DNA from: Patescibacteria group bacterium
GTDB taxonomy: Bacteria > Patescibacteriota > Minisyncoccia > UBA6257 > HR35
Assembly: GCA_023480925.1 (NCBI GenBank)
Contig: JAMCWY010000003.1
Span: 1 to 32,000 of the forward strand
Direction of reading: 5' to 3'
DNA length: 32,000 nucleotides
Position 1 is the stretch's first letter, and every line of letters starts with the position of its first letter. Below the pieces are notes generated by a model, which was not told the origin of the DNA, made no database searches, and worked only from the letters and a program-made list of their open reading frames with translations. Positions 52-1,646 of the stretch are shown one piece after another. Made by a program: the position numbers and the translations under genes.

Positions 52-1646
<1,595 letters not shown>

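Follow-up and report, generated by a model that had tools for sequence, protein, structure and literature searches.

A Parcubacteria 16S rRNA tail without the anti-Shine-Dalgarno core, and evidence for translation initiation independent of Shine-Dalgarno pairing

To our knowledge, loss of the anti-Shine-Dalgarno (anti-SD) sequence itself is rare in bacteria, and every case with good documentation sheds light on how start codons can be selected when rRNA and mRNA do not pair. At the level of the clade, the loss discussed here is already published: according to the available text of Tsurumaki et al. (2022, RNA 28:1041, PMC9297842), CCTCCT is detected in only 48% of Parcubacteria, the lineages without the motif overlap most of the group lacking uL1, and SD helices are presumably not formed in them; bS21 is described there as often absent from Parcubacteria, and bS1 as a short form with 3-4 domains in CPR bacteria. 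As far as that text goes, it treats the presence or absence of the motif only, with no replacement sequences, no mRNA-side analysis and no mention of prfB. Nothing specific on SD use or leaderless initiation in Patescibacteria was found in the literature beyond this report. In Bacteroidia the canonical anti-SD is kept and hidden under bS21, bS18 and bS6 (Jha et al., 2021, PMC7797042; Naeem et al., 2024, PMC10798248, in the available portions of both), while in Flavobacteriia with an alternative anti-SD a fully complementary, covarying SD has been described upstream of one gene, rpsU (Jha et al., 2021). The accessible part of Naeem et al. (2024) also reports that prfB sites in many clades have lost their SD.

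The 32 kb stretch of DNA analysed in this work (hereafter the window) comes from an organism which, like the subgroup of Tsurumaki et al. (2022), belongs to the CPR/Parcubacteria and has a 16S rRNA 3' end without CCTCCT; it differs in having a tail of its own, GGAGCAUAUCUAUU, identical to none of the 20 other tails retrieved, on a 16S ~81-82% identical to the nearest one retrieved. To the published loss we add confirmation at the level of the mRNAs, backed by a positive control, and a negative result for a compensatory motif, that is, evidence of no replacement pairing, all of this around a divergent example with its own tail. The 'SD-blind' ribosomes of Bacteroidia are similar in that SD motifs upstream of genes are below chance in the available sequence, starts are A-rich and the prfB frameshift is kept. 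They differ in that the canonical anti-SD is retained there, whereas here the sequence itself is gone, and also in bS21, often absent from Parcubacteria according to the available text of Tsurumaki et al. (2022).

The complete 16S rRNA gene occupies positions 53..1646 of the + strand. The Rfam bacterial SSU covariance model (RF00177, model positions 1-1533) aligned with it end to end with 1372.9 bits, and the decoding region is intact in this alignment. Helix 45 (1610..1633, + strand), made of UAUCGCUACC, a GGAA loop (1620-1623) and GGUGGCGAUG, was used as the anchor for the tail alignment; as the original prediction had stated, it is intact, each of its ten pairs being standard or G-U in the structure line of the cmscan alignment of the 3' end. 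There, positions 1633-1646 read GGAGCAUAUCUAUU against the consensus GGAUcACCUCCUUu (the bacterial consensus is also given as GGAUCACCUCCUUu), and the single-stranded 3' tail GAGCAUAUCUAUU (1634..1646, + strand) corresponds to E. coli 1530-1542. The cmscan alignment confirmed that the anti-SD core (E. coli 1535-1539, window 1639-1643) is UAUCU instead of CCUCC, with three of the five positions changed (C1535U, C1536A and C1539U, in E. coli numbering), and no CCTCCT was found at the 16S 3' end. It had also been claimed that no CCTCC follows within 150 nt, and this is correct, the pentamer being present in the 32 kb only at 9082 and 23557. Directly past the canonical end, UAAAAU (1647..1652, + strand) forms, with 1641-1646, the string UCUAUUUAAAAU, common to many relatives. 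Conservation runs beyond this end as UUUAAAAU in many of them, and the real tail may exceed the length assumed here; UAAAAU could belong to a mature tail extending past that point, or else serve as a signal for processing.

Regarding the surroundings of the gene, a hairpin (GAGAUUG-ACACA-CAAUCUC, 1657..1675, + strand) can be read from the sequence in the 3' trailer. The 16S 5' leader (GUCUGGGUUAGGUUC, window 3-17) is complementary to a more distal part of the trailer (GAACUAGCCCGGAC, ~1765-1780), and a like complementarity, of UCCGGGUUAAGUU with GAACUUAACCCGGA, is present in relatives L001-L007; this leader/trailer duplex has the appearance of an ordinary RNase III processing stem, which would end just before the response-regulator gene. 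Pairing with the 5' leader was considered as an explanation for the UUUAAAAU extension and found little support: the immediate tail pairs only weakly in the window (-5.6 kcal/mol), with no clean covariation, and the leader/trailer duplexes are present farther out, as a processing stem would give. No 23S, 5S or tRNA gene follows the 16S anywhere in the 32 kb (Rfam, and ARAGORN for tRNA). An Rfam scan of 19 relatives (L001-L007 plus 12 metagenome loci) showed the 16S to be unlinked from the 23S in all of them, with no tRNA, 23S or 5S gene after it. Within the window 16S, a 68-nt insertion (241-330) stands where the bacterial model has 3 nt (cmscan), and folds as a long, A/U-rich perfect hairpin (CCACUCUUUCUUCUAAAAA...UUUUUAGAAGAAAGAGUGG); we take this insertion and the unlinked rrs to be CPR-type traits. 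In several relatives (L003, L012 and L024) the 16S is split by large insertions.

The exact 38-nt helix-45 string was found in only seven GTDB species genomes, named as Parcubacteria, Minisyncoccia, Patescibacteria or MAGs, and CCUCC is absent from the tails of all seven, which include GGACCAAUUCUAUU, GGACUAAUUCUGUU, GGACCACUUCUGUU, GGACCAAUUCCUUU, GGAAUAAAUCUUUU and similar sequences. Scanning metagenomes for tails with UCU replacing UCC gave at least 16 contigs with the same helix 45, and the exact tail of the window was not found among the matches listed. The closest syntenic relative, L132, was found through RF2 and has the 16S, response regulator, prfB, ftsE and ftsX genes in the same order; its tail, CAUCUAUUUAAAAU (also given as GGGCUACAUCUAUUUAAAAU), lacks CCUCC too. 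Inspection of relatives had been suggested as a check on the original prediction; the motif is present in 0 of 21 distinct tails with this helix 45, counting the window, the Parcubacteria/Minisyncoccia MAGs and the metagenome matches listed. Across these tails, position 1535 is A in 17, C in three and U in one, the latter being the window; position 1536 is U in 14 and A in seven; U1537 and C1538 are invariant (21/21 each), and position 1539 is U in 20 of 21. To judge from these sequences, the altered tail is a trait of the lineage and not specific to the window. Identity between the window 16S and the clade sequences is only ~79-82%, from which we conclude that the loss is ancient and that the organism of the window is a divergent representative of the clade. 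Among RF2 homologues, the nearest ones with a name come from Minisyncoccia and Parcubacteria. The position of prfB next to the 16S gave no tblastn match in the seven GTDB relatives, and is kept only in the closer relative L132/L133.

We then looked at the mRNA side, for which SD 4-mers (GGAG, GAGG or AGGA) were counted at -20..-1 of genes called with a crude ORF rule, the inside of genes serving as control. In the window they precede 3% of the genes (1 of 32), vs 7% inside genes, and in all clade loci, with 137 non-redundant genes, 5% vs 12%. As positive control, 40 kb of E. coli K-12 processed with the same ORF caller gave 45% upstream vs 11% inside genes; mis-called starts dilute the SD signal, but this control shows that the method still detects SD use. 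The mean energy of the duplex with the canonical anti-SD follows the same pattern, with -2.76 kcal/mol upstream vs -3.55 inside genes in the window, -1.9 vs -3.0 kcal/mol in the clade loci, and -5.5 vs -4.0 kcal/mol in E. coli. Eleven further loci of ~20 kb from RF2-bearing relatives had SD 4-mers in 0-11% of upstream regions and 6-19% inside genes, with the exception of L135 (52% GC), where the values were 22% and 14%; these statistics cover about 137 + 190 genes, from the 32 kb window and short flanks of relatives.

For 34 candidate genes of the window, the 30 nt ahead of the start were also inspected. GGGAGA does abut the ATG of infA (19370; TIGR00008, 3.9e-26) with zero spacing (19364..19372, + strand), as originally noted, and the identity of this gene was confirmed; a further near-hit is a GAGG located 13 nt ahead of the ATG at 17689. 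The claim that no gene start has an SD holds for all but one of the 32 genes in terms of 4-mers, although it overlooked the only textbook SD-spaced GGAGG of the window (4045-4049), 8 nt before an in-frame ATG at 4058 (4045..4060, + strand). That ATG is taken as the start of ftsX by one gene caller on the Logan contig. As a real ftsX SD the element was rejected: FtsX profiles align from residue 2 of the protein starting at 4019, and orthologues have 300-302 aa, so that the GGAGG is most likely internal to ftsX. It illustrates how SD-based start models mislead in the window genome.

With respect to the start regions themselves, positions -13..-1 in the clade gene set consist of ~45% A, 37% T and 8-10% G, in agreement with the A/T-run leaders noted at the outset, and codons 2-3 are A-rich. 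Over 40-nt windows the mean minimum free energy is -2.2 kcal/mol for the start vs about -4.0 inside genes, and predicted structure along the mRNA is lowest at the start. In 14 of 137 genes a TANAAT hexamer has its first base at -13 or -12, compared with an average of ~1.4 per position; with a -10 box there, transcription would begin at or beside the start codon, and the peak suggests that some mRNAs, from a minority of genes, are leaderless. For bacteria dominated by leaderless transcripts (GeneMarkS-2 group C type) the expectation would be a -10 hexamer at a fixed short distance ahead of most start codons; the peak seen here is clear in position, but covers a minority of genes. The ATGA and TAATG joins that had been noted within operons were recovered as well: 12 of the 29 same-strand junctions in the window overlap, five of them as ATGA (9380, 10312, 11983, 12933 and 18417) and two as TAATG, one between ftsE and ftsX (4017..4021, + strand, with the ftsX start at 4019) and the other at 25208-25212.

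A tail without CCUCC, the absence of SD motifs, open A/U-rich starts and overlapping genes together support SD-independent initiation, as had been proposed from the sequence, now with the E. coli positive control and every related 16S and flank fetched. We consider it highly probable that this Parcubacteria lineage (Minisyncoccia in GTDB) lost CCUCC long ago, that its mRNAs lack SD motifs, and that starts are chosen without rRNA-mRNA pairing, for which we infer three routes. A/U-rich, G-poor and unstructured leaders would let the 30S subunit load, probably with the help of bS1, the usual A/U binder; genes inside operons may be reached by termination-reinitiation at overlapping stop/start junctions; and leaderless or very short-leader transcripts could serve a minority of first genes through 70S initiation.

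A side lead concerns the prfB gene of the window. It follows the response-regulator gene, encodes release factor 2 (2276..3299, + strand; TIGR00020, 6.6e-87) and requires a programmed +1 frameshift. Frame 0 opens with ATG 2276 and extends to CUU (2345-2347) and UGA (2348-2350), translating as MKNKIESVLDNAFERTIGYLGDCL*, and the +1 frame, from 2349 to 3299, gives RF2. A start at TTG 2289 was discarded, the real start being ATG 2276, with the +1 frameshift needed. Nine related loci have the same cassette, for which the consensus is uuuuGGAGGGcugu-YUU-UGA. Its element at -10..-5 is GGAGGG in L130, L135, L136, L139 and L140, that is, in five of ten cassettes, four of these five loci having 26% GC and L135 52%. 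It is GGGGGA in L138, GGAGAA followed by a UAA stop in L141, AGAGGA in L134, GAGGGA in L132, and GGGCGA, before CUU, in the window. The L130-type cassette reads UUGGAGGGCUGUUUUUGAC, and in L130 it stands on the same contig as an AUUCU tail. There is also a short form of RF2, for example in L131 (10001-10717, KatS3mg096), which starts at the ...NIYSGVGGKD region, without the ~100-residue N-terminal domain and without a frameshift; it is apparently widespread, with many matches of 235-250 aa among Parcubacteria.

The altered tail might be an artefact, with the 3' end mis-assembled or chimeric, or the gene might be an rrs pseudogene in a genome that has a functional copy with a normal tail. 16S genes are notorious for chimeric assembly, the genome is seen here through one 32 kb window, and in the Logan contig of SRR10252151 (L008) the first 104 nt are those of a different 16S, joined at a conserved stretch. 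From 1449 on, however, that assembly is identical to the window base for base, through the tail and on its unique side into the response-regulator gene and the next ones, and hence the tail is real and no local assembly slip; a second assembly might have restored a canonical tail and instead has the same altered one. Added to the full-length model match and the intact helix 45 and decoding region, the same kind of tail is found in 20 other distinct related 16S sequences, among them one from a complete genome and three from assemblies that have 0.55-0.68 Mb contigs, and the mRNA side lacks SD motifs independently, all of which makes an artefact or dead gene extremely unlikely. A different possibility is that tail and mRNAs have co-evolved, a new SD-like motif pairing with the UAUCU/AUUCU core or with the extended tail UCUAUUUAAAAU, as in Flavobacteriia with an alternative anti-SD. 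The conservation of UUUAAAAU past the canonical end would fit this idea, as would the AUUUUAAA-like strings just upstream of several starts (e.g. 1795, 3336 and 28474) and the covariation of alternative anti-SD and rpsU leader documented in Flavobacteriia (Jha et al., 2021). The tail of each locus was compared with its own leaders (-20..-1), taking the core 1531-1542, the hypothetical UCUAUUUAAAAU-like extension, or both, against shuffled tails, the reversed tail, shuffled leaders, sequence downstream of stops and intragenic sequence. Such a comparison of hybridisation energies with shuffled controls had been put forward along with the original prediction; carried out on 137 genes of the clade loci rather than on a whole genome, it gave no own-tail pairing above controls (z from -1.2 to +1.8; +1.4 for the window alone), and no excess of leader pairing for the 1647..1652 extension. 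No gene stands out among the 119 with known tails, the best matches (-6.5 to -8.1 kcal/mol) being scattered over unrelated genes, and the rpsR leader of L134, the one ribosomal gene examined, has no tail-complementary match. The altered core resembles that of Flavobacteriia, where it is also a natural change and for which at least ~100 metagenome contigs with tails such as GGAAUAUCUCUUUU were retrieved (their identity as Flavobacteriia being inferred); here, among roughly 120 genes with known tails, in which rpsR of L134 is the ribosomal gene covered, no complementary partner leader was found. In the genes covered, the search for a replacement SD matching the new tails was thus negative, and co-evolution of this sort seems to us very improbable.

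The prfB cassettes bear on a third alternative, according to which the anti-SD is weakened and not lost, U1537-C1538-U1539 still pairing, partly through G-U, with sequences of the GGAG type at special sites only, the prfB stimulator among them, and not in general initiation. The C-to-U changes at 1536 and 1539 leave wobble pairs with G possible, the UCU of the 21 tails varies little or not at all, and GGAGGG is present in five prfB cassettes, with SD use absent from the surrounding genes in all of these loci but L135. For the 26%-GC loci in which it was computed (L130 and L136), local codon usage predicts a frequency of ~0.2% for the triple UUG-GAG-GGC. As a point against the explanation preferred here, GGAGGG in the cassettes would be surprising on a ribosome with nothing to recognise it. 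Against this, the own-tail pairing of the stimulator in the four cassettes with known tails (-2.3 to -5.3 kcal/mol) is no better than that of shuffled tails, 39-84% of which are as good, and the pairing of the E. coli prfB stimulator with the anti-SD is far stronger (-11.4 kcal/mol). In the window itself, where the stimulator has degenerated to GGGCGA, the value is -2.3 kcal/mol, and 81% of shuffled tails are equal or better. We regard a weakened anti-SD as unlikely, and retain initiation without rRNA-mRNA pairing as the preferred explanation.

It is possible, though doubtful, that the G-rich prfB stimulator has been kept by selection despite the loss of its 16S partner; the ten cassettes, some from close relatives, do not separate selection from a relic. 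If this were true, the prfB element would act without anti-SD pairing, or via an unrecognised ribosome partner, and these Parcubacteria would be a natural knock-out separating the two roles of SD-like sequences. The retained stimulator is a small, testable puzzle concerning SD-like sequences during elongation. The degenerate stimulator of the window (GGGCGA-UUGU-CUU-UGA) resembles the prfB sites of the clades reported in the available text of Naeem et al. (2024). The difference is that those clades retain the anti-SD and have lost the SD, whereas here the anti-SD is lost and several relatives keep a perfect GGAGGG. In the accessible portions of PMC10798248 and of PMC12421855, a large prfB survey, we found no mention of a stimulator kept after anti-SD loss, nor of Patescibacteria in those of the survey. 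A practical consequence is that gene callers with an SD model will misplace starts in genomes of this kind, as with ftsX and prfB of the window, which were called with wrong or alternative starts.

Some further observations were made along the way. About 100 of the at least 120 metagenome matches (L009-L128) belong to an unrelated 16S group, with a helix 45 beginning GUAGCCG and ~70% identity to the window; many are apparently marine, and they have altered cores such as GGAAUAUCUCUUUUUUUGAG, GGAACAUCUCUUUU and GGAACACCUCUUUU. This group probably corresponds to the alternative anti-SD Flavobacteriia of Jha et al. (2021). In the window, an ORF of 109 aa without NCBIfam match is located at 27154-27483, between atpA and atpG in the ATP synthase operon. 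Finally, on the minus strand at 6455-7124 there is a 930-bp stretch without a long ORF, with fragments in differing frames of a GT2-type glycosyltransferase N-terminus (MKISVITPCYNE...) and of GtrA-like membrane segments, adjoined by a C6 run, which reads gggggg at + strand positions 7100-7105; this stretch is likely a pseudogene or a frameshifted gene.
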